Origin: Lytechinus pictus
Taxonomy: Eukaryota
Length of the DNA stretch: 64,000 nt
NCBI RefSeq assembly: GCF_037042905.1
Contig: NC_087250.1
Coordinates: forward strand, 24,864,001 to 24,928,000
Reading direction: 5' to 3'
A program made the translations under genes and the position numbers. How positions within the stretch are numbered: position 1 is the stretch's first letter; every line of letters starts with the position of its first letter. Below are positions 1-61,908 of this stretch, piece by piece. A model generated the notes under the pieces. It saw only the letters and a program-made list of their open reading frames with translations. It had not been told where the DNA came from and made no database searches.

Positions 1-539
1 ACGTTTTATTTATACAAAAAGACACTTTGGTGGTCATTTCATTGGATTCTGTACGAACTCAGTATTGTTTGGAGCTAAAAGTGAATGAGAAAATTTTCAA
101 AACTTAAAGAACGAAAAGCTGTTTGACCCCGTGTCTCCCTCTTGGTGTCGTCACTGGTCCGCGATATTTCAAAACGTTGCAGATGGCCACTTCAGTATGA
201 AACCGCGGGTATATACATACCAAACACAGAGCTTCAAAGCAGTTGCGGATAATACACGAAATATTTTGAGGCAGCACAACATAGCCAATTGTGGTATAAT
301 TTGTAAAAAGTTGCCAGCGAGCGAAGCGAGCCAGAAAATTTTGGCCTTTCAGGATTTTGAAATTACATTCTAATTATGTGATAATAGCTTTGAAAATATA
401 GCCAAAGTAAAAATTGAGAGGGTTTGTACGGTAAATCTAGCAGGCGCAAAGCTTTACTTATTCATTAAGATCGACATGGGGAATATATATAACTAGCCCT
501 TGGCTAAGGATTTTTTTTGTCCTGATTGCGGCCATTATT

Positions 540-1279
540 TACGGAGCCCGGGAAGGGACATGGTAAAAATATTTTTATCTCGTTAAAACGACATAGTATC
601 TCGTTTTAATGAGATAGTATCTCGTTAAAACGACATAGTATCTCGTTTTAATGAGATAGTATCTCGTTTTAATGAGATAGTATCTCGTTTTAATGAGATA
701 GTATCTCGTTTTAATGAGATAGTATCTCGTTTTAATGAGATAGTATCTCGTTTTAATGAGAAAGTATCTCGTGTTAATGAGATAGTATCTCGTTTTAATG
801 AGATAGTATCTCGTTTTAATGAGATAGTATCTCGTTAAAACGACATAGTATCTCGTTTTAATGAGATAGTATCTCGTTAAAACGACATAGTATCTCGTTT
901 TAATGAGATAGTATCTCGTTTTAATGAGATAGTATCTCGTTTTAATGAGATAGTATCTCGTTAAAACGACATAGTATCTCGTTTTAATGAGATAGTTATC
1001 TCGTTTTAATGAGATAGTATCTCGTATAAGTCCATTGCATACTGGAACCGGGTGGTCCCTGTATTAAGCCTATGGGAGTGAGAGAATTCAGTAGTCCACG
1101 GGTTAACAACATAATACCACCGGCAGGAAGTTGGTTGGGTGTTCGATATTCGAAATTCAAACTGTGAAGTTGGTTTGATATTCAGGTTCGATATTCAAAC
1201 GCGTGTGAAGTTGGACCAATATTCGATATTCAAAAATTAGGGGTCTTGAAAGCTAACTAGGGGGTTAAACAAGTGCAGC
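540..1279 (+). mobile_element. Truncated duplicate of the foldback element left arm
   Basis: Same ATTATT flank (534-539), tacggagcccggg terminus and 21-bp array as at 2156. It ends abruptly at 1279. Confidence 0.9.
577..1025 (+). repeat. 21-bp minisatellite (tagtatctcgttttaatgaga / tagtatctcgttaaaacgaca)
   Basis: About 21 tandem units of two variants. Confidence 0.95.
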
Positions 1280-2192
1280 GAAATTTTGAATTTTATAAAA
1301 TGATCTGAAAGATTTTAAGAGAAATTCCAATAGTTGCAGTAAACACTGATTTCATGAGAAAGTCTGTAAAACAAGGCTTACTTGTCAGTATATCATCGAG
1401 GATCTAGATCTGGTACAGTTACTTAAACTGAACTTCGTGAAATCTTGAAATCTACGCTGAAAAATGTTTAGACTCAAGATCCCCAACACAGATAAGCGCA
1501 CGTGGGACAGTGTATAATTATTGCTTTGAAAGTCGTGCCCGACTCTACCCGAATCCTGTGCTTATTTGCTGATTTCTCAGCAATTACACAATTTCTTCCC
1601 GAATTCTTTGGCACATACGTTTTATTTATACAAAAAGACACTTTGGTGGTCATTTCATTGGATTCTGTACGAACTCAGTATTGTTTGGAGCTAAAAGTGA
1701 ATGAGAAAATTTTCAAAACTTAAAGAACGAAAAGCTGTTTGACCCCGTGTCTCCCTCTTGGTGTCGTCACTGGTCCGCGATATTTCAAAACGTTGCAGAT
1801 GGCCACTTCAGTATGAAACCGCGGGTATATACATACCAAACACAGAGCTTCAAAGCAGTTGCGGATAATACACGAAATATTTTGAGGCAGCACAACATAG
1901 CCAATTGTGGTATAATTTGTAAAAAGTTGCCAGCGAGCGAAGCGAGCCAGAAAATTTTGGCCTTTCAGGATTTTGAAATTACATTCTAATTATGTGATAA
2001 TAGCTTTGAAAATATAGCCAAAGTAAAAATTGAGAGGGTTTGTACGGTAAATCTAGCAGGCGCAAAGCTTTACTTATTCATTAAGATCGACATGGGGAAT
2101 ATATATAACTAGCCCTTGGCTAAGGATTTTTTTTGTCCTGATTGCGGCCATTATTTACGGAGCCCGGGAAGGGACATGGTAAAAATATTTTT

Positions 2193-2641
2193 ATCTCGTT
2201 AAAACGACATAGTATCTCGTTTTAATGAGATAGTATCTCGTTAAAACGACATAGTATCTCGTTTTAATGAGATAGTATCTCGTTTTAATGAGATAGTATC
2301 TCGTTTTAATGAGATAGTATCTCGTTTTAATGAGATAGTATCTCGTTTTAATGAGATAGTATCTCGTTTTAATGAGAAAGTATCTCGTGTTAATGAGATA
2401 GTATCTCGTTTTAATGAGATAGTATCTCGTTTTAATGAGATAGTATCTCGTTAAAACGACATAGTATCTCGTTTTAATGAGATAGTATCTCGTTAAAACG
2501 ACATAGTATCTCGTTTTAATGAGATAGTATCTCGTTTTAATGAGATAGTATCTCGTTTTAATGAGATAGTATCTCGTTAAAACGACATAGTATCTCGTTT
2601 TAATGAGATAGTTATCTCGTTTTAATGAGATAGTATCTCGT
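2193..2641 (+). repeat. 21-bp minisatellite, left TIR outer domain
   Basis: About 21 tandem units, same as 577-1025. Confidence 0.95.
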
Positions 2642-3000
2642 ATAAGTCCATTGCATACTGGAACCGGGTGGTCCCTGTATTAAGCCTATGGGAGTGAGAG
2701 AATTCAGTAGTCCACGGGTTAACAACATAATACCACCGGCAGGAAGTTGGTTGGGTGTTCGATATTCGAAATTCAAACTGTGAAGTTGGTTTGATATTCA
2801 GGTTCGATATTCAAACGCGTGTGAAGTTGGACCAATATTCGATATTCAAAAATTAGGGGTCTTGAAAGCTAACTAGGGGGTTAAACAAGTGCAGCACGTC
2901 TCGGGCAACCATAACAACACTGGCCTGCCCTAGTAAGAGGACATTCAGGGGACAAACGTCAGTGAATAAAAGGGCAGAAATTTTTTTTTTTTTTTTTTCT

Positions 3001-3706
3001 TTTCGAGGGGCCCCCACATCCCGACGGCCTACCCAGGGCAACCATGTATCCTATCTTGTAGAAATCGACTCGGGAAACAAGATAAGCACTAGCTTGACCC
3101 GGCGCATGCACATTTAGGGGGCTCAAATTAACAAAATTAAAGGGAATAAAGGGCTATTTATCGCATTTTTTCAATTAAAAAAAATATATTTTTCAAGGGG
3201 CCCCCAGGGATATCCCGACGGCCTAGCCAGGGTAACCACGTATCCTAACTTGTAGAACTCGACTCGGGCAACCAGATAAACACTAGCTTGACCCGGCGCA
3301 TGCACATTTAGGGGGCTCAAATTAACAAAATTAAAGGGAATAAAGGGCTATTTATCGCATTTTTTCAATTAAAAAAAATATATTTTTCAAGGGGCCCCCA
3401 GGGATATCCCGACGGCCTAGCCAGGGTAACCACGTATCCTAACTTGTAGAACTCGACTCGGGCAACCAGATAAACACTAGCTTGACCCGGCGCATGCACA
3501 TTTAGGGGGCTCAAATTAACAAAATTAAAGGGAATAAAGGGCTATTTATCGCATTTTTTCAATTAAAAAAAATATATTTTTCAAGGGGCCCCCAGGGATA
3601 TCCCGACGGCCTAGCCAGGGTAACCACGTATCCTAACTTGTAGAACTCGACTCGGGCAACCAGATAAACACTAGCTTGACCCGGCGCATGCACATCATTT
3701 AGGGGG
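3001..3706 (+). repeat. 194-bp tandem repeat, left TIR inner domain (~3.6 copies)
   Basis: tatcccgacggcc recurs at 3211, 3405 and 3599. Confidence 0.93.
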
Positions 3707-5706
3707 CAACTCGTTAAAGCATCTCATGAGCAGATCTTATTCATCTACTAGTATTATACTACTTGTAAGTCCTAATTCCTCCGCCAATAAAATAGTTCCG
3801 AAATCTTAGTGACACCTGTATTTTTCTTTCATTTGCACAAAATATGTTCAATGGTTGCCCATTCTTTGTTTATATAATCAGTCTAATCATTATACATACT
3901 CTTTTTTGTAATCAACTCACCAAAAAAAAAATGAGAATGGGTTGGGTCGAATGAATATCTTTAGCTTTCTGTTGTAGATCGTCATCTCTTGGAGAAAAGA
4001 TGGGGGCGTATATCGATACAAAACGTTTTGTCATGATATAAAATATGAGTATAAAGCTCCAATGATCTTCGAATGATTCTCATGAGACATTTTATTTTGC
4101 ATGTTTAGCCTTCAATTTATTTAGTTAGCAAGGAGTTATACCCCTCCAATAAATTTTAATGAACTAAAATGTCTCTTTTAGACGATATCGCGTGACTAAT
4201 TCCAAATCTATTGATTGATTGATCGACTAAATTTCCAAAGCTACTATCACATAATTAGAATTTAATTTTAAAATAATTTTAAAGGCCAAAATTTTCTGGC
4301 TTGCTTCGCTCGCTGGCTACTTTTTTCAAAATTAATTATTCCACATTTGCTTTGGTGTGCTGCCTCAACATATTTCGTTTATTATCCGCAACTGCGTTGA
4401 ACTTAATATAATATGTGGTGTATGTACCAGCGATTTGAAAAAAAAAATGGCCATCTGCAATGTTTAAAAATATCACGAGGTTCCGGGGGCTCCACCCCAG
4501 ACCAGTGCATGGCGCCACCGAATGGGGAGGCCCCATTGAGTCCCCCCCCCCACCCCCGAAATTTGAAGGAAAAAAAATGTATATAATTCTCCAAAAATGT
4601 TTTTAGTTCTTTAAATTTTAACAATTTTGTCATCCATTCACCGTCACAGCATTTAGCTCCCAACAATTTTAGTCACTAACATAAATCTTTCAGGCCATTA
4701 TATAAAATTCAAAATGTAGCTCGCGCTACGCGCTTCCAGATATTAATGATTATCTGTTCACATGGGGCTTAAAAATCCAATATTATTAGAGTTTTCATTA
4801 TTCGTTTTAGCAAGATACATTATCCTGCGAATTCATAATTTTCACAAATGATATATTTTCAGCGAATTAGATAGCCATCCAGTTCATAATTAAAAAAAAG
4901 CTTAGAACGGCCAGGTATCATCCCGGATATCAAAAATTTTCGGCTCGCGCTTCGCGCTCGCACTATTTATTTGGTGAGATATCATCTTCATAACCCAATT
5001 AATGGAAACAGCTGATCCTTAACAGGTCCCTTTTTCATTCAGTAGGGACTGCATATAAAATAAAATTAGCTCGCAACTCTCGCTCGATTTTTTTTTAAAT
5101 GTGTGTCATCCCCCCGGCCCCAAAATGTTTGTTTGCCTCATCCTAGGTTAAAAACCCTGGTGCCGTCATTGCCCCGGACCCGAACCGCATAGCACTGCCC
5201 CCCCCCCAAAAAAAAAAAGTTCTACAACCGAGAACAAAAAAGAAATAATAAAAGGAAAGAAAGAAAAGGAAGATGAAAGATATGATGTCATTTTCTGCAT
5301 TCCATGTCAAAATCAATCTCAAAATTACAGGTGATTTTTTTTCGCTCACTTCACTCGCTCGAGACTTATTATTAAGCAAATATTTGCTGCGTGCGCCATG
5401 GTGTGCCCCCTCTTTTTTGTTCTAATCTCGCATTGAGCTTCGCCCTAATGTTCAGGGCATAATCATAAAATATCCTGGTCATACAATAATATGTATGACC
5501 CCTCCATTCTCTCTCTCTCCCTTTCCCCTCCTTTTCTTTCCTATCTCTCCCTTTCGCTTCTCTCTCTTTTATTTTTGTCTTCTCTCTTTCTTTGTTGTTT
5601 TTTACTCTACCCATTGGCGGCAACCCTAACGGATGGGGGGGACCGTGGTTCCCCATGCTAATCCGTATTCCTTGTTAATTTAACCCCCCCCCAAAAAAAA
5701 AAAAAT

Positions 5707-6985
5707 ATGCATGCGCCAGGTCAAGCTAGTGTGTATCTGGTTGCCCGAGTCCAGTTCTAAAAGTTAGGATACGTGGTAACCCTGGCTAAGCCGTCGGAAT
5801 ATCCCTGGGGGCCCCTTGAAAAAATACTTTATTTCAATTATAAAAAATGCGATAAATAGCCCTTTATTCCCTTTAATTTTGTTAATTTGAGCCCCCTAAA
5901 TGTGCATGCGCCGGGTCAAGCTAGTGTTTATCTGGTTGCCCGAGTCGAGTTCTACAAGTTAGGATATGTGGTTACCCTGGCTAGGCCGTCGGGATATCAC
6001 TGGGGGCCCCTTGAAAAAATACTTTATTTTAATTATAAAAAATGCGATAAATAGCCCTTTATTCCCTTTAATTTTGTTAATTTGAGCCCCCTAAATGTGC
6101 ATGCGCCGGGTCAAGCTAGTGTTTATCTGGTTGCCCGAGTCGAGTTCTACAAGTTAGGATACGTGGTTACCCTGGCTAGGCCGTCGGGATATCCCTGGGG
6201 GCCCCTTGAAAAATATATTTTTTTTTATTGAAAAAATGCGATAAATAGCCCTTTATTCCTTTAATTTTATTAATTTGAGCCCCCTAAATGTGCATGCGCC
6301 GGGTCAAGTTAGTTCTTATCTGGTTGCCCGAGTCGAGTTCTACAAGTTAGGATACGTGGTTACCCTGGCTAGGCCGTCGGGATATCCCTGGGGGCCCCTT
6401 GAAAAAATACTTTATTTTAATTATAAAAAATGCGATAAATAGCCCTTTATTCCCTTTAATTTTGTTAATTTGAGCCCCCTAAATGTGCATGCGCCGGGTC
6501 AAGCTAGTGTTTATATGGTTGCCCGAGTCGAGTTCTACAAGTTAGGATACGTGGTTACCCTGGCTAGGCCGTCGGGATATCCCTGGGGGCCCCTTGAAAA
6601 ATATATTTTTTTTAATTGAAAAAATGCGATAAATAGCCCTTTATTCCTTTAATTTTGTTAATTTGAGCCCCCTAAATGTCCATGCGCCGGGTCAAGTTAG
6701 TTCTTATCTTTTTGACCGAGTCAAGTTCTACAAGATAGTATATGTGGTTATTCTAGCTAGGCCGTCGGGATATCCCTGGGGGCCCCTTGAAAAAATACTT
6801 TATTTTAATTATAAAAAATGCGATAAATAGCCCTTTATTCCCTTTAATTTTGTTAATTTGAGCCCCCTAAATGTGCATGCGCCGGGTCAAGCTAGTGCTT
6901 ATCTTGTTTCCCGAGTCGATTTCTACAAGATAGGATATATGGTTGCCCTGGGTAGGCCGTCGGGATGTGGGGGCCCCTCGAAAAG
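5707..6985 (-). repeat. ~194-bp tandem repeat, right TIR inner domain (~6.6 copies)
   Basis: Reverse complement of the 3001-3706 unit. Confidence 0.93.
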
Positions 6986-7345
6986 AAAAATTAAAAAAAA
7001 TAACAATTTTCTGCCCTTTTATTCACTGACGTTTGTCCCCTGAATGTCCTCTTACTAGGGCAGGCCAGTGTTGTTATGGTTGCCCGAGACGTGCTGCACT
7101 TGTTTAACCCCCTAGTTAGCTTTCAAGACCCCTAATTTTTGAATATCGAATAGTGGTCCAACTTCACACGCGTTTGAATATCGAACCTGAATATCAAACC
7201 AACTTCACAGTTTGAATTTCGAATATCGAACATCCAACCAACTTCCTGCCGGTGGTATTATGTTGTTAACCCGTGGACTACTGAATTCTCTCACTCCCAT
7301 AGGCTTAATACAGGGACCACCCGGTTCCAGTATGCAATGGACTTA

Positions 7346-8111
7346 TACGAGATACTATCTCATTAAAACGAGATAACTATCTCATTAAAACGAGATACTA
7401 TGTCGTTTTAACGAGATACTATCTCATTAAAACGAGATACTATCTCATTAAAACGAGATACTATGTCGTTTTAACGAGATACTATCTCATTAAAACGAGA
7501 TACTATCTCATTAAAACGAGATACTATCTCATTAAAACGAGATACTATGTCGTTTTAACGAGATACTATCTCATTAAAACGAGATACTATCTCATTAAAA
7601 CGAGATACTATCTCATTAAAACGAGATACTTTCTCATTAAAACGAGATACTATCTCATTAAAACGAGATACTATCTCATTAAAACGAGATACTATCTCAT
7701 TAAAACGAGATACTATCTCATTAAAACGAGATACTATGTCGTTTTAACGAGATACTATCTCATTAAAACGAGATACTATCTCATTAAAACGAGATACTAT
7801 CTCATTAAAACGAGATACTATGTCGTTTTAACGAGATACTATCTCATTAAAACGAGATACTATGTCGTTTTAACGAGATACTATCTCATTAAAACGAGAT
7901 AACTATGTCGTTTTAACGAGATACTATCTCATTAAAACGAGATACTATCTCATTAAAACGAGATACTATGTCGTTTTAACGAGATACTATCTCATTAAAA
8001 CGAGATACTATCTCATTAAAACGAGATACTATCTCATTAAAACGAGATACTATGTCGTTTTAACGAGATACTATCTCATTAAAACGAGATACTATGTCGT
8101 TTTAACGAGAT
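7346..8111 (-). repeat. 21-bp minisatellite, right TIR outer domain (~36 units)
   Basis: Reverse complement of the left array, longer and with a different variant order. Confidence 0.95.
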
Positions 8112-8213
8112 AAAAATATTTTTACCATGTCCCTTCCCGGGCTCCGTAATTATTGCATGTAATCTAGCAAGCTTATAATATACACCATCCACCCCCCGGG
8201 GGGGGGGGGCTTA

Positions 8214-9326
8214 TTATATTCACTCGCGTTCGTAATCACTCGCGTTGCGTTGGTAATCACACGCGTTTTTTATTTTTGGCGATTTTTTTTTCATTTCGGT
8301 GCGATTTTTTTTCTAACGGTGTCTTCAATGGGACAAACACGCTGGGAAAATAAAATGAAATTGAAATTCGAGTTTCGTTTTAAGCCGGCAAGTGCCTTAA
8401 ATAAGATGTACTCGACTACTTTTTAAACATAACAAACAAGCAAATCAGCCATGTGGCTCAACTAACTTAGAATAGATCCGGACTTCTACTGTGTCTTATA
8501 CGAGGACTCCGAGTCGGAACTTGCCATATCTGCCACATCGATATTACATCGTATCATTCCCATATGCGGACATGCCTGCATGCAATGGCCCCAAGGCGGC
8601 CGGACCCGGCCGCGGTCGGACACGACGTGCATCGGTAGCACGGAGCAAGCTAACGTGAGTCGAGCTGAGTTAGATCCCACGTTACATATGTAACGTGGGA
8701 TCCGCATATGGGAATGATACGATGTAATATCGATGTGGCAGATATGGCAAGTTCCGACTCGGAGTCCTCGTATAAAACACAGTAGAAGTCCGGATCTATT
8801 CTAAGTTAATAATAGTTATTATTTAATGAATAATGATTATATAACAAATAATTGTTCTATATAATATTGGTACAATCGGCGCCTCATATATAACGTGGGA
8901 TCTAACTCAGCTCGACTCACGTTAGCTTGCTCCGTGCTACCGATGCACGTCGTGTCCGACCGCGGCCGGGTCCGGCCGCCTTGGGGCCATTGCATGCAGG
9001 CATGTCCGCATATGGGAATGATACGATGTAATATCGATGTGGCAGATATGGCAAGTTCCGACTCGGAGTCCTCGTATAAGACACAGTAGAAATCTATTCT
9101 AAGTTAGTTGAGCCACATGGCTGATTTGCTTGTTTGTTATGTTAAAACAGTAGTCGAGTACATTTTATTTTAAGGCACTCAATTGCCGGCTAAAAACGAA
9201 ACTCGAATTTCAATTTCATTTTATTTTCTCTGCATGTCTGTCCCATTGAAGACACCGTTAAAAAAAATCGCCAAAAATTCAAAACGCGAGTGATTACGAA
9301 CCCGCACGCGACGCGAGTGATTATAA
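8214..9326. mobile_element. Palindromic non-autonomous element with ~450-bp arms and an extra internal partial arm
   Basis: 8214-8690 is the reverse complement of ~8885-9326, which gives the mirror ORFs 8486-8707(-) and 8895-9089(+). Ends read ttata(a/t)tcactcgcg. No clear TSD. Confidence 0.8.
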
Positions 9327-9735
9327 ACTGCCGGGGGGGGGGCACTCGACCAATGTGCCGCGGGCTAGCCCGGCCGCGCGTTTCCGTTTTACACCCTGGC
9401 GAAGGCATTTTCCGCAAAAATAGCCACAAAGCGACTAGTGAAGAGTCTACACACGTCGCTGAACATGTCTACACACGCGCGCGCGGAAGAGGAAGGGTTC
9501 TCGCGGAGCTCTTTCTTTCCTCCCTTTTTGGGGGGTTTTCTTTATCAGAATTGTTAATTTTCATCGAGCCGCATCTTTTACGGATCTTTTAGGACCAATA
9601 TTTGGATTTCTTCTGCAAAGAGAAAGCAAAGGTAAGCAGGATTTGTTGGCCTTTAACTAATTTCCATTCCGCACACACTAACGCATAGGTTAACACGTGT
9701 TTTCAAAAACCCCGCCCTGTAGCGGCGGACCAATC

Positions 9736-11044
9736 ATGACAGAGGGTCACGCGAAAACGGGACCGCCATTGCAAGATACCACTGACGATGAATTCCGGAC
9801 TGTCACGTACGCACGATCACCTAAAATTAAATTTCGCGGCAAACGAAGACGTGAAGGAAGCTTGGACGTGGAAAATATCACGCCCAGGGCGGACTCTTCG
9901 TCAGATAGTACAAGCAACACAACTTTTACGATACACAGCACCCCATCCACAAACACAAGGGCCAATTTTACTCTGTATATTAGCCCGATAGAAAAAAACA
10001 AGAATTTCAATAACGTAAATCCCATAGAAATAGCAAGAGCAATTAAACGCACTTGTCCCAATCCAATTGACAATATTATCTGACCGCTCTTCAACAAATA
10101 ACCCAAATTGGCAACATCCCAGTAAAAATAGAAGAAAAGAGAGCCGGCGTGAAGGGTGTTATTTATGGGGTCTCTACAGCTATCTCAGAAGAGGAAATCA
10201 AGCAGGAGCTTAAGACCCAGGGAGTTTCTTTTGCAAAGAGAATTACTAAGAAAACAAAACAAAATGAAATGGTCCCATCGAAGAAGTGCCCCTCAAAAGT
10301 GTAATTCTTACATTCAATAAAACAAATCTCCCCGAACAAGTAAACTTGTGTTTTCAAATTTTCCCAGTTAAGATCTTTGTACCCCGTGCTTCAAGATGCT
10401 TCAAATGTCAACGGTTTGGCCACGGCATAGCTCAATGCAGAGCAAAGATACGTTGTGTTAGGTGCGGAGAAGCACATACCTTTGAGGAATGTCAAAAGAA
10501 AGAAGATAGGAAATGTATCAATTGCGGGGGCAGACATTCTGCAGCATACGATGGATGTGCCGTGGCTAAAAAGGCACAGAAAATACAGCACATAAAAGTA
10601 ACAAAGAACACAACCTATGCTAACGCCGCAAAAATGCTCGCTAACGAAGAAAAAACAGCAGACAATAACTTGACCACGCCTCATAATGTAGACTCAACCA
10701 ACAAGCACCAAATTGATCCCCTTGTAGCTCAAACTAAATCCGCCCCTCCGGTGGTCCGTCCAAAAGAACCCCTCCCAAAAAAGACGGCACCACAAACAGA
10801 AGTTCCAATGGATTTTAATTATGAACAAACAAGAAAAGAAGAACATAGATACGAGCCTCAAACGAAAAGTAACTTTTTAACAACAGCAGACAATGAACAG
10901 ATTATAAATTTTATTACTTATCTTATATTCATTTTTGTGGAAGGAAAAACAAAGAAAGAAGTTTTAGCTCTGGTCGAATCGGTAACTGGACGATTGCTTA
11001 GAAGTGGATCTACCCCTACCCCACAGGCAGAAGGAGGTAGCTAG
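9736..11044 (+). pseudogene. LINE ORF1 (gag-like, three zinc knuckles), frameshifted
   Basis: VKGVIYGV..EEI, VILTF, RCFKCQRFGH..C, CVRCGEAH...C, CINCGGRH...C. The frame is broken near 10080 and 10285. Confidence 0.88.
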
Positions 11045-11057
11045 TTTTTTTCTTATC

Positions 11058-14000
11058 ATGGCGTCCCTAGCAATATTGCAGTGGAACGCACAGGGCCTAC
11101 ACTGCCATGGCAGTGAACTTATAAGATACCTAAGTAACCCTCACAACTTATTCTATCACATTATTTGCATACAAGAAACTTGGTTTGGGGAAGATCATAT
11201 TTTTAACATTCCCAATTATACATGTATACCCAGGAACCGTATAAATCAAAGTAGAGGAGGATGTGCATTTTACATCCACAAAACGGTCGACTATTTAACC
11301 CCTCGTTTTGATGAAGAATATGAAATCCAACATATAAAAGTGTACTTTGGTGAGTCACATATTGGCATAGTCAACTTTTATAATCCTTGTCAAAAATTAG
11401 ACGAAAATATTTTAAATAAATTACTAACTGTAGCCTGTGGTACTGATAGGTTTCTCATACTAGGAGATTTTAATTCCCATAACAGCCTTTGGGGCAGTGA
11501 AAAAAATGATCATAACGGACTTATCATAGAAGATTTCATTAATAATCACCATTTAGTTATATTAAACGATCTTTCAGGAACAAGACTCGATCCTCTCTCT
11601 GGAAAAATGTCCAATTTGGATCTTAGTTTTACTTCCCCAGCTTTATCGAACCGATGTTCCTGGGAGGTCCTCAACAATTCTTTTGGCAGTGATCATTTCC
11701 CTATATCGATAGAGCTTCTTATGGATATCTCTAAAGACACCACACCTCAAAAAGAAAATTCTAGTCATATGAAATTTTGGTCTTTCAAAAATACAAAATG
11801 GGCTGATTTCGCAAAGAAATGTGAAGAATTGATGGATGAATTCATTAATTTTGAAAGTTCTCAAGAATTTTATACTTTTTTCATCAAAAGTCTTACAGAT
11901 ACTATCCTTAAGACAGTTCCTTCTAACACAAAAAGACAGCATAATCCTATACCTTGGTGGACTCCTGAATGTACCAAAAGCATCAAAGCGAGGAATAGAG
12001 CTAAAAATAATTTAACAAGACATATATCTGTAGAAAATCTTGCCTCTTTCCAGGAAAAAAAGGCAGAAGCACAAAAAATTATACGTAAAACGAAAAAGGA
12101 ATATTGGGATTCATTCTGCAAAAAACTCAACCGTTTCGTCCCCGAAGGCAAACTATGGGCAACAATCAAACGGATGAACGGCTTGAGTGGCAAGAAATCT
12201 AACAGAATGTCGGCACTTATTGAAAATGATAAGGTAATAACAAAAGATTCAGACAAATCAGAATTATTAGGAAATCATTTTCAGGAAATGGGCTCATCTA
12301 CCTTTCCAACAAAAAACCAATTACCCAACCTTGAATTGGAGATTTCTCAGGCACAATCTGAAGGTTTAGATCATGTAATAAATGAATCTTTCACAATTTT
12401 GGAACTAGAAAAGGTTCTCAAAACCTGCAAAAATTCAGCACCAGGTAAAGACAACATCCCTTATATCGTTTATCAAAATCTTCCTCTTAAACCTAAAAAA
12501 GTAATGTTGAAAATAATGAACAAAATTTGGAACTCGGGAGATATACCCCATGAAATGAAACATTCTACTCTCGTTCCGATTCTTAAGAAAAAGAAAGATC
12601 CTAAACTTGTCTCTTCATATAGACCTATAGCTCTTTCTTCATGCTTTTCCAAAATATTTGAACGTATGGTTAAAGGAAGACTTGAATGGTACATTGAAAA
12701 ACATAATATTTTGCCTCCCATAATCAGCGGCTTCCGAAAAAACCACAACACCACTGATAGTATTGTTGATTTGGAAAACACTATTAAAAAAACTATCAAC
12801 AATGGAGAACATACTTTGGCTCTATTTTTAGACGTCGAAAAGGCATACGATAGATTATGGATAAAAGGTCTAATTTACAAACTTTTGCAGTGTGGTATCA
12901 AAGGTAAAATGCTAACTTTTCTCTACAACTACCTTTCAAATAGAACATTCCAAGTTACAATTGGAAAGAGTGAATCATAAATATATGTAATGCAAAACGG
13001 ACTCCCACAAGGAAGTACACTTAGTCCCATATTATATAATATTATGATGAGGGACATCCCTATCATCAATCCAGTCACCACATCCATTTATGCAGATGAT
13101 ATACATGTAGCAGTTTGGATGTCCGGTAATCAATTAGATGTAACCTCAAAAAAAATTCAAGAATATCTTAACAAATTACACGTATGGTTTAATAAATGGG
13201 GTTTCCGTCTTTCCTCTGATAAAACTGCTCTGGTTTTATTTACAAAAGCCCAAAAAAATAATTGCCCTGAGATAAAACTAGGAGAAAATCGTCTAACTTT
13301 CAACTCTGTTAAAAAGTTTTTAGGTGTCACTTTTGATCACCGACTTACATGGCATGCCCATATCGAGGATATAGTGACAAGGTGTAAAAGGAAACTTAAC
13401 ATTCTCAGAAGCCTTACTGGAACTTCATTTGGAAGCTCCTCCAAATCCCTCCTCATTGTTTATAGGGCAATAATAAGATCGCTAATGGAGTATGGATGCG
13501 AGGCTTATGATAGTGCATCCCAAACAATAAAAGCAAAATTAGATGCAGTTCAATATCAAGCATTAAGGATTTGCGTTGGAGGGCTCCCTCTTACCCCACT
13601 AGAAGCCCTGCAGGCTGAACTCGGGGAAATGCCCCTCGACCTGAGAAGAAAAGCACTCACAGTTAAGTTCAGAAGAAAGATTGAAACACATGAAGACCAT
13701 CCAATTTTGCTTAATATAAAACCGTGCTGGCAATTCGATTTATCCAATACTCAAAAAAATTATAAACCTTTTGGAATCAGAGCAGAGAAAATAAACTACT
13801 CTGTAGAATCATGTAGATACGCTTTTCCTCCATGGCTTTTTCAACACCCGAAGGTTTCAATAGAACTGAACAAGGAACTAAATAAACATGACCATCCTTT
13901 ATATAAAAAACAAACGAGCCTCGATCTTATTAATTCAAAATGGTCAAATCAACTCCATATTTACACAGATGGATCCAAAGAACCCGTCACTGGAGCATGT

Positions 14001-14791
14001 GCTGCCTCCTTTTACGTTCCAGCTTTCCATTACTCCCAGTCTAAACGCCTCACTGATTATACTTCATCATATAGAGCTGAATTAGCAGCAATCATCTTAG
14101 CCCTCAACTGGTTAGAAACTCTTGATGTATACGTAGGAGTAGTAATCTTTAGTGACTCATTAAGCTCCCTAGTAGCAATATCAGAACAAAAAGAAATACC
14201 TTTTGTCTCAGAAATTCTTACCCTACTAACAAATTTAACATTTTTAGGCATAGACATAAACTTTGAATGGATCCCCAGCCACTGCGGTATTAGTGGAAAC
14301 GAGATGGCGGACACGAAAGCAAAAAAATGCATTGCAGAAAAAAATTGAAGTCAACAACAAATTATCTTTAACAGAAATAAAACATCTCATTTTCAAAAGA
14401 TACACTCTAGAATGGCAAAAAAGATGCAATGAATCCCATCGCCTACTTAAACTATACCATCCCACTGTTAACTCTCCCTTTTTTTTGTTCCCTTAGTAGA
14501 TTCCACGAAACCATTATCCACAGACTCCGTTTTGGTGTAATAGGATTGAACTACGATTTAAAAAGACTTAATATACACCCCACGGGACTTTGTGATACAT
14601 GTAGGCCTAACAAATTAGAAACAGTTGAGCATTTTTTAATCGAGTGTCCCAAATATATAATAGAGAGAGCCATGCTACTTACAGAAACAAATCTATCAAC
14701 CCCCCAAAAAATAATGGATCTCTTAAAGAGTACTAAGGTAGAAACCCAATCTGCATTGGTCCGTTTCGTTCTCAGAACGAAACGATTATAA
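11058..14791 (+). pseudogene. LINE ORF2: AP endonuclease, reverse transcriptase, RNase H, C-terminal CCHC
   Basis: APE: QWNAQG, IQET, GDFNSH, SDHFPI. RT: YRPIAL, FLDVEKAYD, PQGSTLSP, YADD, FLGV. RNase H: YTDGS, AELAAI, SDS, WIPSHCGISGNEMAD. C-terminus: CDTC..ETVEHFLIEC. In-frame TAA at 12978-12980 and frameshifts near 14340 and 14485. Confidence 0.95.
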
Positions 14792-15877: not shown

Positions 15878-16129
15878 GTCCTACACCACCGCATGCAATC
15901 TGCACAGTTACTGAATAGAGTTCCTCGGCACGTCATGTACAGAGAGCAGTCATATGAGTGAAATCCGAACATGCTTTTGCAGTTACTTTTTTTATGAAAA
16001 GTTATGAAAAAGTTTTTTTTCTAAATATAAATTATTAACTAAATGAATCGAATGACAGACAAAATAAAAATAAACAGATACATATAATAGAAAGAAAATT
16101 GAAGTTTGATGGATTGATACAATTAGATG

Positions 16130-16169
16130 CCGAAAGATAGATATAGAAGACTGATAAATTGATAGAGAC

Positions 16170-16220
<51 letters not shown>

Positions 16221-17170
16221 TATAGATAGAAGTAGAGAGAGAGAGAGAGTAAGACAGAGAGATGGATATATATATAGATAGATAGATAGATAGATAGAAG
16301 TAGAGAGAGAGAAAGACAGAGAGATGGATAGATAGATAGATAGATAGATGGGGGGAGAGAACTTGAGAGATGGAGAGATGTTATAGATAGATAGATAGAT
16401 ATATGGACGGATAAAGAGAAATAGAGAGAGAGAAAAAAAGACAGACAGATGGATAGATAGAGAGAGAGAGAGAGAGATAGAGAATCTGAGAGATAGATAG
16501 ATGTTAGATAGATAGATAAAGAATGAGAGAGACAGAGAAGATTAACAGATAGATAGATACTGTAGTTACATAGATAGATAGAGATAGAATTTGAGAGATA
16601 GATAAATAAATAGATAGATAGAAGATAGATAGAGAGAGAGAGAGAGAAAGACAGAAAGATGGATAGATAGATAGAGAGAGGGGGAGAGAGAGAGAGAATT
16701 TGAGAGATAGATAGATGTTAGATAGATAAAGAATGAGAGAGACAGAGAAGAGCGACAAATTAACAAATAGATATAGATACTGCAGTTACATATAGATAGA
16801 TAGATAGATAGATAGATAGAAGATAGATAGATAGATTAAAGAGAGAGTGAGAGAACTAGAGAAAGACAGATGGATAGATAGAGAGGGGAGAGAGAGATAG
16901 ATAGATGTTAGATAGATAAAGAATGAGAGAGACAGAGAAGATTAACAGATAGATAGATACTGTAGTTACATAGATAGATAGATAGATAGATATAGATATA
17001 ATTTGAAAGATAGATATATAGACGGATAGAGAGAAATAGACAGACAGATGGATAGATAGATAGAGAGAGAGAGAATTTGAGAGACAGACAGACAGATGGA
17101 TAGAGAGAATTCGAGAGATAGATAGACGGATAGAGAGAAACAGAGAGAGAAAAAGACAGACAGATATATA
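16130..17170 (+). repeat. Complex (GATA)n/(GA)n microsatellite region, mirrored as (TATC)n at ~20960-22200
   Basis: Direct inspection. A higher-order subunit (tgtagttacatagatag) is repeated. Confidence 0.9.
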
Positions 17171-17684
17171 CAAATAAATATTTACTTGTATAAATTATAA
17201 TTAGTTTTTCTAATGTAACCTCTCGAATTTACCGGCGTGATAACCACCTCGACCATATACCTTTTCCGTTTCACTTGAATGAACTTAAGTCACGCGAATT
17301 CTATATCACACCAGAAACCGAACACACGACACTGCACACCTCCGAGTCAGCCCGAAAGACCCCAAAGACCCAGGTAAAATTACCCCACATTAGATACATA
17401 TATTTATTTGTATATATTTGTCATGTTTGTACATCATATGTGTATGTTTGTGTATATGTACATATGTATGTATATATATATGTATAAGTGTATTTATGTA
17501 CATATATGCGTATGTGCATGTATGTATTTGTATATGTATGTATATGTATGTGCATATATTGTATACGTACGACGTCATTGTTACATATGTTATTATCAGT
17601 TATTATATATGTACATGTATATGCCCATATTTCCACCTCCCTCTATACTATTGATATGTTTCGTTCGTTTTTGTTAAAATAGAA

Positions 17685-17716
17685 CCCATGAAGAAGGCCT
17701 AAGGCCGAAAGCTCGG
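17685..17716 (+). ncRNA. Degenerate minimal hammerhead-ribozyme motif in a Penelope-like 3' end
   Basis: cc-ATGAAGA-a-ggcc(taa)ggcc-GAAA-gc-TC-gg, then AATAAA and (TA)n. C3 appears mutated to A. Confidence 0.5.
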
Positions 17717-17868
17717 AATAAATTGTGGTCTACAGCAACGTCAAATCGTCTTGTCATTCTTTCGCCTATATATATATATATATATATATATAGTCAAATG
17801 ATCTGCTCGGAGATTATAAATAGGTTCAAACAAAGAAAAGTATAAAAACTCCGTGGACAGTAATATTT

Positions 17869-17903
17869 TAACGAATTTTCGCCCATAGGGCTTTGTCAAG
17901 TTA
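17869..17903 (-). ncRNA. Minimal type I hammerhead-ribozyme motif (U3-A8 variant)
   Basis: The minus strand reads taac-TTGACAA-a-gccc(tat)gggc-GAAA-at-TC-gtta. Stem I is taac/gtta and stem II is gccc/gggc. Confidence 0.7.
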
Positions 17904-18409
17904 TGACAAATTTATTAGATTGCGTCAAAATAATGCATCATAAAAATGCGCGGTATCCAAGCAGTGAGCAAAAGCGCACAAAGGATGACGAAAATGATAC
18001 GTCATAAAGGGGAAACGAAAGAAGACAGTAGGAGAAGTAGATAGAGAGAAAATGAGAGAGAGCGCGTGAGAGAAAGAAGAAGAGAGAGTGGGTGAGAAGG
18101 AGGGAGATAAGCAAGAAAGAAAAAAAGAAAAAAAGAGAGAAGAAAAAAGAAAAAGAAAGAGAACAGGAAAGAAAGACAAGGAAGAGAAGGTAAAAGAAAA
18201 ATAAAAAAAGAAGAAAACAAATATCCACGTCAAACGAAATGAGTGGAAAGAAACATTGAGAGAGAAAGAAAGAAAGAAAGAAAGAGCGGGTGAGAAGGAG
18301 GGAGATAGGGGAGAAAGAAAGAAAAAAGAGAAGGAAAAAGAAAAGGAAAGAAAGGAAGAGTGGGTAAAAGAAAAATAAAAAGAAAGAAAAAGAAGAAGAA
18401 AAGAAATAT

Positions 18410-18770
18410 CTACGTCAGACGAAATGAGTGGAAAGAAACATTGAGTCCATTGGGTTGGAGACATCCAAGGCGATGGATAATCTTCTCTTCCAAAAGCTTT
18501 CTGTCCTCATCACTTCCTTTGCAAGATAGAATTCCGAAGATCTTCATATCATCTATGGTGTGTCCAGGCAAATTGAAGTGACGGGCCACAGGAAGACCTT
18601 GAGTGTTGAGTCTAACGGACCTTAGGTGTTCAGTAGCTCTGTCGGCCATCCTACGCTTGGTTTCCCCGATATAGATCAAGTCACAGCGAGAGCAGACGAT
18701 GGCATAAATCAGGTTGGTGGTGGTACAGGTAAAATCTTCCCTTATTTCCCACGTGCCATTCGGCCCCTTC
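18410..18770 (-). pseudogene. GIY-YIG endonuclease C-terminal fragment of a Penelope-like element
   Basis: FTCTTTNLIYAIVCSRCDLIYIGETKRRMADRATEH...VARHFN...R...E..I......PNGLN. The CxxC between the GIY and YIG motifs is typical of Neptune-type elements. Confidence 0.9.
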
Positions 18771-18807
18771 AGCAAAGTGCAATCCCCCTTCAGCAAAGTA
18801 AAATCCA

Positions 18808-18905
<98 letters not shown>

Positions 18906-21900
18906 TGGATTTTATTGCAATAAAAACTATCAAAATAAAATCACAAGCAGTCAAAGACTGAAATAAGTGAATGTTTACATACAAAATATAAAGTAAACAT
19001 TATAAATGAATATCAAATACAATATAAATTCATACAAATGAAAAAGAAATGTATCATAAATAAATACAAAAGGCCAAAAGTACTACAAAAGTGTCACCAA
19101 AGAAGAAACAAGCGGAATGAAAGATTAAGAAGAAAGAGGAGAGAGAAGAGGAAAGAGGTGAGAGAAGGGAAAGAAATTGGGATAAGACAAAGAGAAGGGA
19201 AAGCAAGAGGTGGAATTTGAAAGAGAATAGGAGGCAACCTTCAGAAAAAAACTCGTTATGCAATACAAGACATTTAACTATGGTAACAAGTAAATAAAGT
19301 AGTAATTGAATCGAATCGAGCACAAAAAGGGAAAAGTAGAGCTGAGGAAATAGACTCCAGAAGGAAGTCGAAGCAGTGTTGATATTGCACGAGTAGATTA
19401 ATAGATGGATAGAGAGAAATAAAAGAGAGACAGATGGATAGATAGAGAATTTGAGAGATAGATGTTAGATGGATAAATAGATAGACAGATAGATAGGTAG
19501 ATAGAGAATGAGAGAGACAGAGTAGATATACAAAATAACAGATAGATATATCATGTAGTTCCATAGATTGATTTATAACATAGATAGTGGATAGACAGAT
19601 ATGATAGATATAAGGATAGATATAATATGAAAAAAAGTAATTATGTGTTTTATTTTTCAATATTTTAGCTATTATTCGTTTTCATTCATATAAACGATCA
19701 TGTGCGATAAAGTAAAAAAAAAAATCATGAAGCCAACGTATATAGTTCAGCGGAACAACCAAAATACAGAGACTGAAGCTTTTGGTATAAACTCAGCTGC
19801 ATTTGCACGTATGTTCTGCGGATATCTTCGGTGCGGACTTTTGGGTCGCGCGCCCAGCTGATTATGTAAACAAACGTAGACGTAGACTCTTCACTAGTCG
19901 CTTTGTGGCTATTTTTCCGGAAAATGCCTTCTCCAGGGTGTAAAACGGAAACGCGCAGCCCTTTCCGTTTTACACCCTGGCGAAGGCATTTTCCGGAAAA
20001 ATAGCCACAAAGCGACTAGTGAAGAGTCTACGTCTACGTTTGTTTACATAATCAGCTGGGCGCGCGATCCAAAAGTCCGCACCGAAGATATCCGCAGAAC
20101 ATACGTGCAAATGCAGCTGAGCTTATAGACCAAAAGCTTCAGTCTCTGTATTTTGGTTGTTCCGCTGAACTATATACGTTGGCTTCATGATTTTTTTTTT
20201 ACTTTATCGCACATGATCGTTTATATGAATGAAAACGAATAATAGCTAAAATATTGAAAAATAAAACACATAATTACCTTTTTTCATATTATATCTATCC
20301 TTATATCTATCATATCTGTCTATCCACTATCTATCTTATAAATCAATCTATGGAACTACATGATATATCTATCTGTTGATTTGTCTATCTACTCTGTCTC
20401 TCTCATTCTCTATCTACCTATCTATCTGTCTATCTATCTATCCATCTAACATCTATCTCTCAAATTCTCTATCTATACATCTGTCTCTCTTTTATTTCTC
20501 TCTATCCATCTATTAATCTACTCATGTGCAATATCAACACTGCCTCGACTTCCTTCGAGAGTCTATTTCCTCAGCTCTACTTTTCCCTTTTTTGTGCTCG
20601 ATTCGATTCAATTACTACTTTATTTACTTGTTACCATTGTTAAATGTCTTGTATTGCATAATGAGTTTTTTTTTCTAAAGGTTGCCTCCTATTCTCTTTC
20701 AAATTCCCCCTCTTGCTTTCCCTTCTCTTTGTCTTATCCCAATTTCTTTCCCTTCTCTCACCTCTTTCTTCTTAATCTTTCATTCCGCTTTTTTCTTCTT
20801 TGGTGACACTTTGTATTACTTTTGACCCTTTGTATTTATTTATGATACATTTCTTTTTCATCTGTATGAATTTGTATTGTATTTGATATTTATTTATAAT
20901 GTTTACTTTATATTTTGTTATGATTCTATTTGTATGTAAACATTCACTTATTTCAGTCTTTGATCTCAAATTCTCTCTATCTATCCATCTGTCTGTCTTT
21001 TTCTCTCTATCCGTCTATATATCTATCTCTCAAATTATATCTATATAGATCTATCTATCTATCTATCTATCTATGTAACTACAGTATCTATCTATATGTT
21101 AATCTTCTCTGTCTCTCATTCTTTATCTATCTAACATCTATCTATCCATCTGTCTTTCTCTAGTTCTCTAGTTCTCTCTCTATCAATCTATCTATCTATA
21201 TGTAACTGCAGTATCTATCTATCTGTTAATTTGTCGCTCTTCTCTGTCTCTCTCATTCTTTATCTATCTAACATCTATCTATATCTCTCAATTCTCTATC
21301 TCTCTCTCCCCCTCTCTCTATCTATCTATCCATCTTTCTGTCTTTCTCTCTCTCTATCTATCTATCTTCTATCTATCTCTCAAATTATATCTCTATCTAT
21401 CTATGTAACTACAGTATATATCTATCTATCTGTTAATATTCTCTGTCTCTCTCATTCTTTATCTATCTATCTATCCATCTGTCTTGTTTTCTCTCTTTCT
21501 CTATTTCTCTTTTTCCGTCCATATATATATCTATCTAACTATAACATCTCTCCCTCTCTCAAGGTCTCTCCCCCATCTATCTATCTATCTATCTTCTATC
21601 TATTTATCTATCTATGTAACTACAGTATCTATCTATCTGTTAATTTGTCTATCTTCTCTGTCTCTCTCATTCTTTATTTATCTATCTATCTAACATCTAC
21701 CTATCTCTCAAATTCTCTATCTCTCTCTCCCCCTCTCTCTATCTATCTATCCATCTGTCTGTCTTTCTCTATTTCTCTCTATCTATCTATCTATTTATCT
21801 ATCTATCTATGTAACTACAGTATCTATCTATCTGTTAATTTGCCCATCTTCTCTGTCTCTCTCATTCTTTATCTATCTATCTAATATATATCTCTCAGAT

Positions 21901-21987
21901 TCTCTCTCTCTCTATCTATCCATCTGTCTGTCTTTTTTTCTCTCTATATATTTCTCTTTATCCGTCCATATATCTATCTATCTATCA

Positions 21988-22048
<61 letters not shown>

Positions 22049-22082
22049 ACATCTCTCCATCTCTCATTTCTCTCCCCCCCCC

Positions 22083-22113
<31 letters not shown>

Positions 22114-23365
22114 CATCTCTCTGTCTTTCTCTCTCTCTCTCTCTACTTCTATCTATCTATGTCTCTATCTATTTATCAGTCTTCTATATCTATCTAAGTG
22201 TATCAATCCATCAAACTTCAATTTTCTTTTTATTGTATGTATCTGTTTATTTTTATTTTGTCTGTCATTCTATTCATTTAGTTAATAATTTATATTTAGA
22301 AAAAAAAAATTTCTTAACTTTTCATTAAAAAAACCTAACTGCAAAAGCATGTTCGGATTTCACTCACATGACTGCTCTCTGTACATGAAATGCTCTGATC
22401 AGTAACTGTGCAGATTGCATGCGGTGGTGTGGGACTCGCCTGTGTCGCACGCTGCAACCAGCGACGTGTGTAGACTCTTCACTAGTCGCTTTGTGGCTTT
22501 TTTTGCGGAAAATGCCTTCGCCAGGGTGTAAAACGGAAACGCCGGCCAGCGGCACGGGCGCCGGTGCGATCGCGCAGAGGTGATGGTTGGACAGCGCTCA
22601 GCGGCCGCTTTTCACCAAAATTGCAGCTCATTGTGGCGGATTAATGCGACCGGAACGGCGTAACGAAAAATATGCGAAGCTTTGGAGCGGATTTATTTCT
22701 TCTTTTTTCTCGATAAGAAGACAATGCTATGCTTCGGAGCGGCTTTCTTGGTTCTTTTTCTCAATATGATGAAAATGCTATGCCCTGGAACGGATATTTG
22801 AGTGTAAAAATGGGGGTCCCCTCCGCGGCACATACCCATGCACTATGCATTTTATACTGAGTGCCCCCCCCCCTGCATCCACCTTTTTCCCCGTTCTTTG
22901 TATTTGCTCATCCTCGGCAGCTTGGTCGTTATATTAAGTTCTTTTCCTTTTTTCTTGTAAATTTTCTTCATATTCTGATTTATTAATTTAGCTTTTTGCT
23001 CTACCTTCATTTCCCGTTTCGTTTTTCCCTTTTCTCCCATTTTCCCGGAATTCTTGCCTGTACCATTGAGTCATATCTTTTGATTTTATATCCCTCTCTT
23101 GCTAATCGTGCTAATGCATAGTATTTCCGGATATTTTGTACTTTCCAAAATGTTCTTTCGTTCCTTTTCCCGCTTTCCTTCCATTTTCTCTATTTATGTT
23201 CTTTCTTTCTGTTCTTTTCTTTTCACTTTTTCCCTTTCCTCTTTTTCTGTCCCTTTCTCTCTTTCTCCCTTTTTTCCTTTTTTCTCGTTTTTTTTATTTT
23301 CCCGGTGAAATCCGCCAGTGGGGGGCAGCTTGCCCCCCCCCCCCCGCCTGTTACGCCACTGTGTG

Positions 23366-27245: not shown

Positions 27246-27993
27246 CACTCTAAAAAGCGAAGAGCTACAAAGAGCTAATAGCTCTTAAAGATCAAGTCTA
27301 CCTCAGAAAAATGTTGATTTGAATCAACAAAGAAAATTCAGACAAACATTATGCTGAAAACTGGATCAAAATTCGGATGTAAAATAAGAAAGTTATGACA
27401 TTTTAAAGGTTCGCTATTTTTCACAAAATAGTTATATGCACAATTTAGTCACATGCAAATGAGAGAATCGATGATTTCCTTCACTCACTATTTCTTCTTT
27501 TTATTGTTTGAATTATACAATATTTCAGGACCAACCTGACTGAACCATGAAATGTTAAACAATGTTAATTCCACATGTTCAGGGAGAAATAAAACTTTGT
27601 TTCACAGGACAATGAGGAGAAAATTAGAATATTTCATATTTCATCTAATGAAATGCAAAAGAAAGAGTGAGTGATGTCATAATTTCCCTCATTTGCATAC
27701 CGACCATGATGTGCATATAAGCGAAACCTTAAGATGTCATAACTTTCTTATTTTCCATCCGATTTTGATGAAATTTTCAGTGCTATGCTCGTTGGATTTT
27801 TCTCTTTTTATTCAAATCAACTTTTTGTTGGGATGACTTGTCCTTTAAAGAGCGTGTATAGTGACTGCAGTTCGGAGTGCTGATTTGTCTAGTTCAAATT
27901 TGAACGAGAAAAATCAGAACTCCGAAGTGCAGTCACTATACGCGCTCTTTAAGAGCTAAATTAGCTCTTTGTAGCTATTCGTTATTTAGAGTG
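27246..27993. mobile_element. Palindromic CACT-ended MITE (EnSpm/CMC-like), 2-bp TG TSD, interrupted
   Basis: tg|cactctaaa ... tttagagtg|tg. It becomes a ~190-bp near-palindrome once the nested insert is removed. Confidence 0.75.
27289..27844. mobile_element. TTAA-targeting MITE with AG..CT ends (Kolobok-like)
   Basis: ttaa|agatcaagtc ... gacttgtcct|ttaa, with inner inverted motifs atcaaaattcggatg / catccgattttgat. Confidence 0.8.
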
Positions 27994-32276: not shown

Positions 32277-32834
32277 GGTTACACTTCGTAATTCCGAAGG
32301 TTCTTTATTCCGAAGGTTCGTAATTCCGAAACACGCAAATTGCCTATACCTCGATGTTCGTTAATCCGAAAACGTAAAAGGGTTCGTTAATCCGAACATT
32401 TGTGGCGTTATTCCGAAGGTTCGTTATTCCGAAGGTTCGATTATCCGAAAACGAAATAAGGTTCGATGTTCCGAAGGTTCGATAATCCGAAAACGAAATA
32501 AGGTTCGATGTTCTGAAGGTTCGTTGATCCGAAAACGAAATAAGGTTCATTGTTCCGAAGGTTCGTTAGTCCGAAAACGAAATAAGGTTAGTTAATCATT
32601 TAGTTTTCGGACAAACGAACCTTCGGAATTACGAACCTCATTTCTTTTTCGGATTAACGAACCTTCGGAATTACGAACCTCACTTTGTTTTCGGACTAAC
32701 GAACCTTCGGAATTACGAACCTCATTTCGTTTTCGGACTAACGAACCTTCGGGATTACGAACCTTCGGAAATATGAACCTTCGGAATAACGAACCTTCGG
32801 AATATCCGAACCTTCGGAATTACGAATGTATGCG
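32277..32834. mobile_element. Mutator/Foldback-type MITE with tandem-repeat TIRs and 9-bp TSD
   Basis: gtgtggact at 32268-32276 and 32835-32843. The arms are built from ttccgaaggttcg / cgaaccttcggaa repeats. Confidence 0.85.
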
Positions 32835-32956: not shown

Positions 32957-33658
32957 TCTAAGTGCTGAATTTGTAATTGAATTTATTATCAAATACTCGC
33001 TGATCTTGACTTGCCTTATAGTGTAAGACCAACAGGTCTAAAAAAATAATAGTTTCATACACCTTACGACTGTTCGCGATCCGATTTTGGAAGAAATCGC
33101 ATTTTGCTCATTTTCTAAAAATGTGAATGGAACATATCATTTTATTTGAGGTTAAAATTAATTGAAAGAATGCTAACATAATCATTTCGAAAGATTGCAA
33201 GCATTTATTTTGGAGTAAAGGCCTAATTATTCTCAAATCGTAGCCAATCGTATGACTGCTATGACGTCATTACGACTAGATATTAAATTTGCTTTTATTC
33301 TAAGAAGTATGATAGCATAGTCACAGATTTGAATATAGGTATTCGTACGATGATTTTGAACATTACACAGTAAGATATTCCAAGTCTCAATACTAGCATC
33401 AAATTTTACTACGTTTTATTCCAAAATTGAGTCGCAGACCAATCTTAAGGTGTGCGGTCGCCTTAACTTGCAATAGCGATTTGAGAGTATATACTATTAT
33501 GTAATTATTTCCAGTATGATGGCTCGGGGGTCTTGTGTAATGGATAGTGTTATATCCATTTGGCGAGTCGAGCACAGAGTTCATTATTTAGGTCCTCTAT
33601 GCAAGTCAAGATCAGTGAGTATTTGATAATAATTTCAATTACAAATTCAGCACTTAGA
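32957..33658. mobile_element. Inverted-repeat element with a nested MITE (~33058-33464)
   Basis: tctaagtgctgaatttgtaattg...cttgacttgc is mirrored at ~33600-33658. The inner pair is caccttacgactg..gattttgg / ccaaaatt..taaggtg. Confidence 0.6.
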
Positions 33659-46300: not shown

Positions 46301-46391
46301 AATATATAGAGAAAGTAAATCAAGATATTGATTAAATTGGTTTTGTTCGCTGTAAACACGTATAAATAGGCCTATTATAAGAGGTCATGTA

Positions 46392-56782: not shown

Positions 56783-57075
56783 GTGGAGCGTTGTGGCCCA
56801 GTGGATTGGTCTCCGGACTCTGAAACAGAGGGTCATGGGTTTGAATCCCAACCATGGCGTAATTTCCCTCGGCAAGGAATTTATCCACATTGTGCTGCTT
56901 CGACCCAGGTGAGGTGAATTGGTACCCGGTAGGATTTATTCCTTGAACGCTTTATAGCGCATATTAATATGGCGGCTTAGCTACAGCCGGGGTAATAATA
57001 TGATACCAAGTATCAAAGCGCAGTTGAGTATATACACATATTAAACTGCGCTATATAAATGGACATATTATTATT
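56783..57075 (+). mobile_element. tRNA-derived SINE with L2/CR1-like tail
   Basis: A box tggcccagtgg, B box ggtttgaatccc, core gacccaggtgag...ggtacc, tail aaagcgc..gcgctatataaat(tta)n. It is absent from the paralogous repeat copies. Confidence 0.8.
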
Positions 57076-61711: not shown

Positions 61712-61902
61712 ATAATAAACACAAGTTCACAAGGTTGACTGGAGGTTCATCAAATTTAATTGCAACTCTGAGTTTCACGCAACCTACGTGAGGTGCGATC
61801 GTCAGGCAAGTTGCCTGACGATCGCACCTCACGTAGGTTGCGTGAAACTCAGAGTTGCAATTAAATTTGATGAACCTCCAGTCAACCTTGTGAACTTGTG
61901 TT

Positions 61903-61908
<6 letters not shown>
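61712..61908. repeat. Perfect palindrome, 98-bp arms with a 1-nt spacer, next to (TA)n
   Basis: 61712-61809 is the exact reverse complement of 61811-61908. Each arm contains CTGACGA-stem-GAAA-c-TC. Confidence 0.95.

Follow-up and report, generated by a model that had tools for sequence, protein, structure and literature searches.

A foldback element of 5,993 bp, located at positions 2156-8148 of a 64,000-nucleotide stretch of Lytechinus pictus DNA (assembly GCF_037042905.1, contig NC_087250.1, positions 24,864,001 to 24,928,000; the whole stretch is hereafter the window), is in our reading a non-autonomous DNA transposon of the IS3EU/GingerRoot type, with a probability of about 0.82. The element starts with TAC at 2156 and finishes with GTA at 8148, contains no recognisable protein, and was inserted into a host repeat as a single unit, with 6 bp of the target duplicated. 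Its assignment is based on the sequence of the ends, which follow a motif common to fungal IS3EU families, together with a 6-bp target duplication supported by empty copies of the same host repeat in public sequencing runs; on these grounds we regard it as a probable, rather than a proven, member of the IS3EU type.

Ends, arms and target site

The termini of the element read TACGGAG.. from 2156 and ..CTCCGTA up to 8148, and their first 37 bases are complementary at 37/37 positions, in full agreement with the boundaries and TAC..GTA ends proposed in a preliminary description of this DNA. Inwards from each terminus, the arms are organized in an array of 21-bp units, an inner block and an array of 194-bp units (Table 1). 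These modules had also been recognised in the preliminary description, although the plain terminus spans 36 bp instead of about 37, with the first 21-bp unit beginning at base 37, and the block held to be unique is not wholly so. The arms differ in length (1,552 bp on the left and 2,446 bp on the right) and in the size of their arrays, with 21.4 versus 36.4 copies of the 21-bp unit and 3.5 versus 6.5 copies of the 194/195-bp unit, and the inner blocks between the arrays (376 and 380 bp) share 373 matches. An alignment of the inner block with the 194-bp unit, strongest at the inner end of the block, scores 177 against a maximum of 147 in 200 shuffles; because this alignment stands above all the shuffles, the 194-bp array probably grew out of arm sequence. 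An origin of the same kind has been proposed for the large array of the foldback element Tetris (PMC4079207).

The 21-bp unit is a split palindrome constituted by an 8-bp arm, a 4-bp spacer, a second 8-bp arm and one further base. Its two main types are near reverse complements, so adjacent units can form 15-bp hairpins (2192-2641 and 7347-8112), and rare variants of the unit occupy matching places in both outer arrays. The loop between the arms, described earlier as non-coding and about 2 kb long, indeed measures 1,995 bp and contains no long open reading frame (ORF); it carries host repeats that recur elsewhere in the window. Within the element, the only ORFs of more than 100 codons run through the 21-bp arrays; among 37 frames listed, none of the five that were scanned matched Pfam, and no Rfam match was obtained within positions 1-10000 of the window. 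Foldback elements are recognised by long modular inverted repeats holding a tandem-repeat domain and a non-tandem inner domain, and by a middle segment that lacks a transposase and varies among copies. The inverted arms described above display this modular plan and confirm the foldback architecture put forward previously; the middle is non-coding in the one full copy seen.

The element is flanked on both sides by ATTATT, the longest direct repeat at these positions (6 bp), for which a chance probability of approximately 3e-4 was calculated from the local composition. From 23 public runs listed, contigs of four (X1, X2, X3 and X10) were aligned, to positions 2020-2235 only, and the word shares of the runs were at most 0.19, a figure that carries no information on the inner block. 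In X1-X3, the left flank (2020-2155) corresponds to a repeat of high contig depth, and contigs matching up to 2155 (four in X1, four in X2 and three in X3) run on into letters resembling 8155-8184, with 17/30, 22/30 and 23/30 positions alike, respectively, in an ungapped count made by eye. These contigs correspond to empty copies of the target repeat, in which ATTATT is present once and no TA-centred double is found. Positions 2156-2235 were not covered by contigs of X1-X3, nor positions 2020-2155 by contigs of X10; the contigs are informative on presence only. The comparison supports the 6-bp duplication suggested in the preliminary description. Furthermore, the identity of the two ends and the intact target duplication suggest that the insertion is fairly recent.

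Terminal motif and short relatives

IS3EU families display TA..TA ends and, usually, 6-bp target duplications, and constitute one lineage with GingerRoot (PMC10045372); the ends of IS3EU elements from rusts follow TAYGG..CCRTA (PMC12730594), and fungal members are given as having terminal inverted repeats of more than 30 bp. The element shows TACGG..CCGTA ends on both sides, a 6-bp target duplication and terminal inverted repeats that exceed 30 bp. Further, among 27 fungal IS3EU consensus 5' ends (Table S1 of PMC12730594, inspected by eye), 26 start with TAYGG and 20 fit the longer motif TAYGGA-N11-GMCA, which the left terminus matches as TACGGA-N11-GACA. Three termini in the window, namely the two of the element and a third one contained in a tandem duplication described below, fit this motif in register, and the window holds four matches in total where 0.38 would be expected. 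The fourth match, at 38418, is not paired with one on the opposite strand and was taken as a chance occurrence. The fungal elements IS3EU-2_PGr and IS3EU-3_PCor each share 15 of their 21 first bases with the window terminus (counted by eye). The longer terminal motif in common with fungal IS3EU families supports the IS3EU-type affiliation that had been inferred previously.

A single metagenome scan yielded two loci, L001 and L002, which correspond to short elements of 113 and 155 bp built solely of two termini plus two or four 21-bp units, the difference in size being exactly two units. The ends of the short elements are like the window terminus at 22-23 of 23 and 29-31 of 37 bases, and their first 21-bp unit begins at base 37, as in the window element. 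When their six units are compared with the window consensus, 83 of 96 arm positions are alike and only 3 of 24 spacer positions. Conserved arms around a variable spacer would be typical of a site bound by a dimeric protein, which makes the 21-bp array a likely candidate for transposase binding. The contigs of both loci have a GC content of 43% and share nothing else with the window, and the host is presumed to be an animal. The 113-bp miniature inverted-repeat transposable element (MITE) lies at 887-999 of L001, some 270 bp upstream of a 47-codon frame (472-612, minus strand) ending at GT; this frame has some likeness to an Rb-family first exon, which was not borne out by the four relatives obtained for it, and it gave no solved structure and no atlas match.

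Several observations weigh against the IS3EU-type assignment and the support given to it. The terminal motif was derived from the first 15 fungal rows, all of which fit (15/15), and in the next 12 rows the strict motif fits 5, plus 2 with one mismatch; moreover, the fungal families carrying it are related to one another and hence not independent. No element combining these ends with a transposase was found: three scans of prokaryote genomes and three of viral contigs for the terminus or unit patterns gave no true match, and two candidates from them, L003 and L004, had neither units nor a second end and were rejected as chance matches. Regarding the short relatives, L001 has no target duplication (2/6 alike) and that of L002 is imperfect (5/6), and the conservation pointing to protein binding comes from six units of two loci only. 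A single full-length copy has been seen. The empty sites are paralogous repeat copies from another organism or individual and not an orthologous empty allele, and the loose-end comparison draws on 20 of 89 rows, with consensus agreement of 0.64-0.89.

Alternative explanations, known systems and a possible mechanism

The main rival to a foldback of IS3EU type throughout is a composite origin, which we consider unlikely. According to this explanation, only the termini and the 21-bp arrays would be IS3EU-derived, as a MITE similar to L001 and L002, whereas 2642-7346 would be a second foldback or captured DNA, the whole having then moved, or stayed, as a unit. The two short elements consist only of the terminus and 21-bp units and are otherwise unmatched in the window, in which nested repeats are common, and both observations favour such an assembly. 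Conversely, no clear target duplication is found at the 2641 and 7347 junctions, where a formal TA reading leaves no intact unit and stems from the palindromy of the unit itself, and the rare unit variants at matching places in both outer arrays suggest that the arms were copied whole. A composite history would alter the origin of the inner domains and leave the identity of the ends as it is.

There is little chance that the element was mobilised by another enzyme that duplicates 6 bp, such as that of Polinton/Maverick elements or a Ginger2/TDD integrase-like transposase. Polintons do possess long inverted repeats, but they end in AG..CT, and Ginger elements end in TGT..ACA; neither fits the TAC..GTA element, whose TACGG..CCGTA ends agree with the IS3EU pattern. 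What this explanation has in its favour is that no transposase was seen in the element, and that both Polinton/Maverick and Ginger2/TDD are listed with 6-bp duplications as well (PMC6839031).

A Mutator-type foldback is largely refuted and, in our view, very improbable. The modular plan, in which an outer domain, a tandem array and an inner domain surround a non-coding middle of variable sequence, is shared by the Tetris, Drosophila FB and sea-urchin TU elements. Mutator is considered the source of most foldbacks, but the duplications of Tetris measure 8-10 bp (PMC4079207), and the longest flanking direct repeat here is 6 bp, in agreement with the empty sites. Equally improbable are a TA-duplicating Tc1/mariner derivative with CGG..CCG ends and a 4-bp TTAT element with TTAC..GTAA ends, both formal readings of the single window copy that were retained in the preliminary description: the first is refuted, because it would need ATTATT twice around TA in the empty site and the empty paralogues pass from one ATTATT to the right flank, and the second, although it predicts the same empty site as the 6-bp duplication, is disfavoured because it requires a T before TAC, which occurs in 0/5 other ends (A in one X10 contig with 66 bases identical to 2156-2221 beside a different flank; G, G, A and C in the four ends of L001 and L002).

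With respect to known IS3EU and GingerRoot elements, the likeness resides in the TA..TA ends, the 6-bp duplication and the terminal motif in register with fungal families, and non-autonomous families are known, since 17 of 45 Repbase families are autonomous (PMC10045372). The differences include the lack of a transposase in the window copy, as well as the inverted repeats, which span 1.55 and 2.45 kb and each contain two tandem arrays, compared to 100-150 bp in GingerRoot, and the all-A/T target, compared to GingerRoot targets that are GC-rich on average (PMC6839031). Tetris, from Drosophila virilis, shows long modular inverted arms, tandem arrays unequal in copy number, a variable non-coding middle and a larger unit derived from adjoining arm sequence, all resembling the window element; it differs in its 8-10-bp duplications and its assignment to Mutator, in contrast to the 6 bp and IS3EU-type ends found here (PMC4079207). 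Repeats of foldbacks have also been proposed as extra transposase sites, which according to the same source has been shown for Galileo. Galileo is a P element, whereas the window element has IS3EU-type ends, and the presence of two arrays per arm further sets it apart from these foldbacks.

Internal tandem units have been reported for IS3EU-like repeats, including HSymIS3EUlR of Hydractinia (182 bp; PMC11934779) and the oyster satellites CgiSat35 and CgiSat47 (690 and 129 bp; PMC8268682); these are satellite-like, and inverted modular arms or target duplications are not described in the available parts of both sources. A beetle repeat with a partial IS3EU match has been documented too (PMC5844308). 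An IS3EU foldback was presented in the preliminary description as a combination not recognised as already described, and no description of one was found in the literature searched, where most subscription journals are missing and where sea-urchin genome papers merely list IS3EU. However, it has been suggested (PMC4079207, section 17) that separate transposon lineages acquired the foldback shape independently of one another, and IS3EU-like tandem units are already in print, so the novelty is weaker than was first suggested; it is also quite possible that the family was catalogued earlier.

As for the mechanism, an IS3EU DDE transposase encoded by another element could be supplied in trans and mobilise the foldback. 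This enzyme would recognise the 36-bp end and bind, probably as a dimer, the palindromic 21-bp units, which are spaced by about two helical turns; the ends would then be paired by the transposase and joined to target DNA with a 6-bp stagger. Excision of IS3EU might proceed by cut-and-paste or through a copied circle, as in bacterial IS3. The arms may have grown inwards from a short end module like that of the 113- and 155-bp relatives, one end serving as template for the other in gap repair. Slippage or unequal exchange would then have multiplied the 21-bp and 194-bp units, and the loop might be host DNA, either captured or a secondary invader. We give roughly even odds to a more general proposal, namely that an animal IS3EU lineage uses an end-recognition code formed by TAYGGA-N11-GMCA followed, from base 37, by phased 21-bp split palindromes that bind transposase dimers, one and the same module giving rise to 113-bp MITEs in one host and to multi-kilobase foldbacks in another. 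If so, IS3EU would represent a further, undescribed source of foldbacks and satellite-like arrays, and its ends would have been conserved or transferred between distant animals.

IS3EU appears in the repeat lists of many genome reports, but its structure and function are described as largely unexplored (PMC11934779), and a copy as clean as this one, with a 6-bp duplication that is supported, a conserved end motif and a candidate binding array, offers concrete material on which binding and transposition could first be assayed. Alongside Mutator and P, IS3EU would probably be another source of foldbacks, which can seed satellites and rearrangements; the general principle is unchanged, as the foldback shape is thought to arise repeatedly. 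We consider the conserved end module the most useful new point.

Tandem duplication and other features of the window

Positions 1-1279 of the window are identical to 1617-2895 (1279/1279), revealing a tandem duplication of 1,616 bp that went unnoticed in the preliminary description. Its junction lies at 1279/1280, its breakpoint falls 740 bp inside the left arm, and it accounts for the third terminus, at 540, which is preceded by ATTATT (534-539). The duplication may have arisen very recently, or else it reflects an assembly error. An origin by alternative transposition was rejected, the breakpoint being 740 bp within the arm and not at a terminus.

Table 1. Coordinates of the foldback element, its target site and the tandem duplicate in the window.
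Feature	Position	Strand	Basis
Tandem duplicate of 1617-2895: flank, ATTATT, terminus, whole 21-bp array and 254 bp of inner block; starts upstream of the window	1..1279	+	
Target DNA, left part of the host repeat that resumes at 8155	2020..2149	.	contig depth in public runs
Left target-site duplication, ATTATT	2150..2155	+	sequence; single copy in empty paralogous sites
Left terminus, 36 bp, TACGGA-N11-GACA, IS3EU-type motif	2156..2191	+	end comparison
Left outer array, 21.4 copies of the 21-bp split palindrome, two main unit types	2192..2641	+	
Left inner block, with a degenerated 194-bp unit in its inner part	2642..3017	+	alignment
Left inner array, 3.5 copies of the 194-bp unit	3018..3707 (array ending at 3695, arms alike up to 3707)	+	
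Loop, 1,995 bp, no long ORF; host interspersed repeats at 4227-4477 and about 4893-4982	3708..5702	.	
Right inner array, 6.5 copies of the 193-195-bp unit	5703..6966	-	
Right inner block; 373 positions match its left counterpart	6967..7346	-	
Right outer array, 36.4 copies of the 21-bp unit	7347..8112	-	
Right terminus, same as the left one	8113..8148	-	
Right target-site duplication, ATTATT	8149..8154	+	sequence

Other repeats are abundant in the window. A second foldback is located at about 8208-9332, 54 bp to the right of the element, with arms that are 88% alike and short repeats near the ends; it probably has GGC..GCC ends between runs of 10 G, perhaps with a 9-10-bp Mutator-like duplication, and contains an extra inverted copy (8463-8570 and 8701-8808). 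It is followed at 9694-14791 by a non-LTR retrotransposon that has, besides a part resembling ORF1, domains for endonuclease, reverse transcriptase and RNase H; the reverse transcriptase is interrupted by a stop codon near 12980. Positions 15878-22435 form a large nested palindrome in which simple repeats abound and which encloses a 2-kb hairpin at 18951-20963 (93% identity), and a 176-codon frame at 18410-18940 resembles by eye a fragment of a GIY-YIG endonuclease, with no Pfam match. A 70-90-bp element recurs at 9372-9461, 19882-20031 and 22459-22547 with 96-98% identity, once as a hairpin. More inverted-repeat elements are found at 27281-27952, 32280-32830 (16- and 42-bp units, with a TAC start at both ends), 32957-33658 and 61712-61908, the last being a near-perfect palindrome of 197 bp adjoining a TA run. 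Finally, several segments of 300-900 bp are duplicated within 45648-57482 with 82-92% identity, which suggests an old segmental duplication or tandem gene copies.

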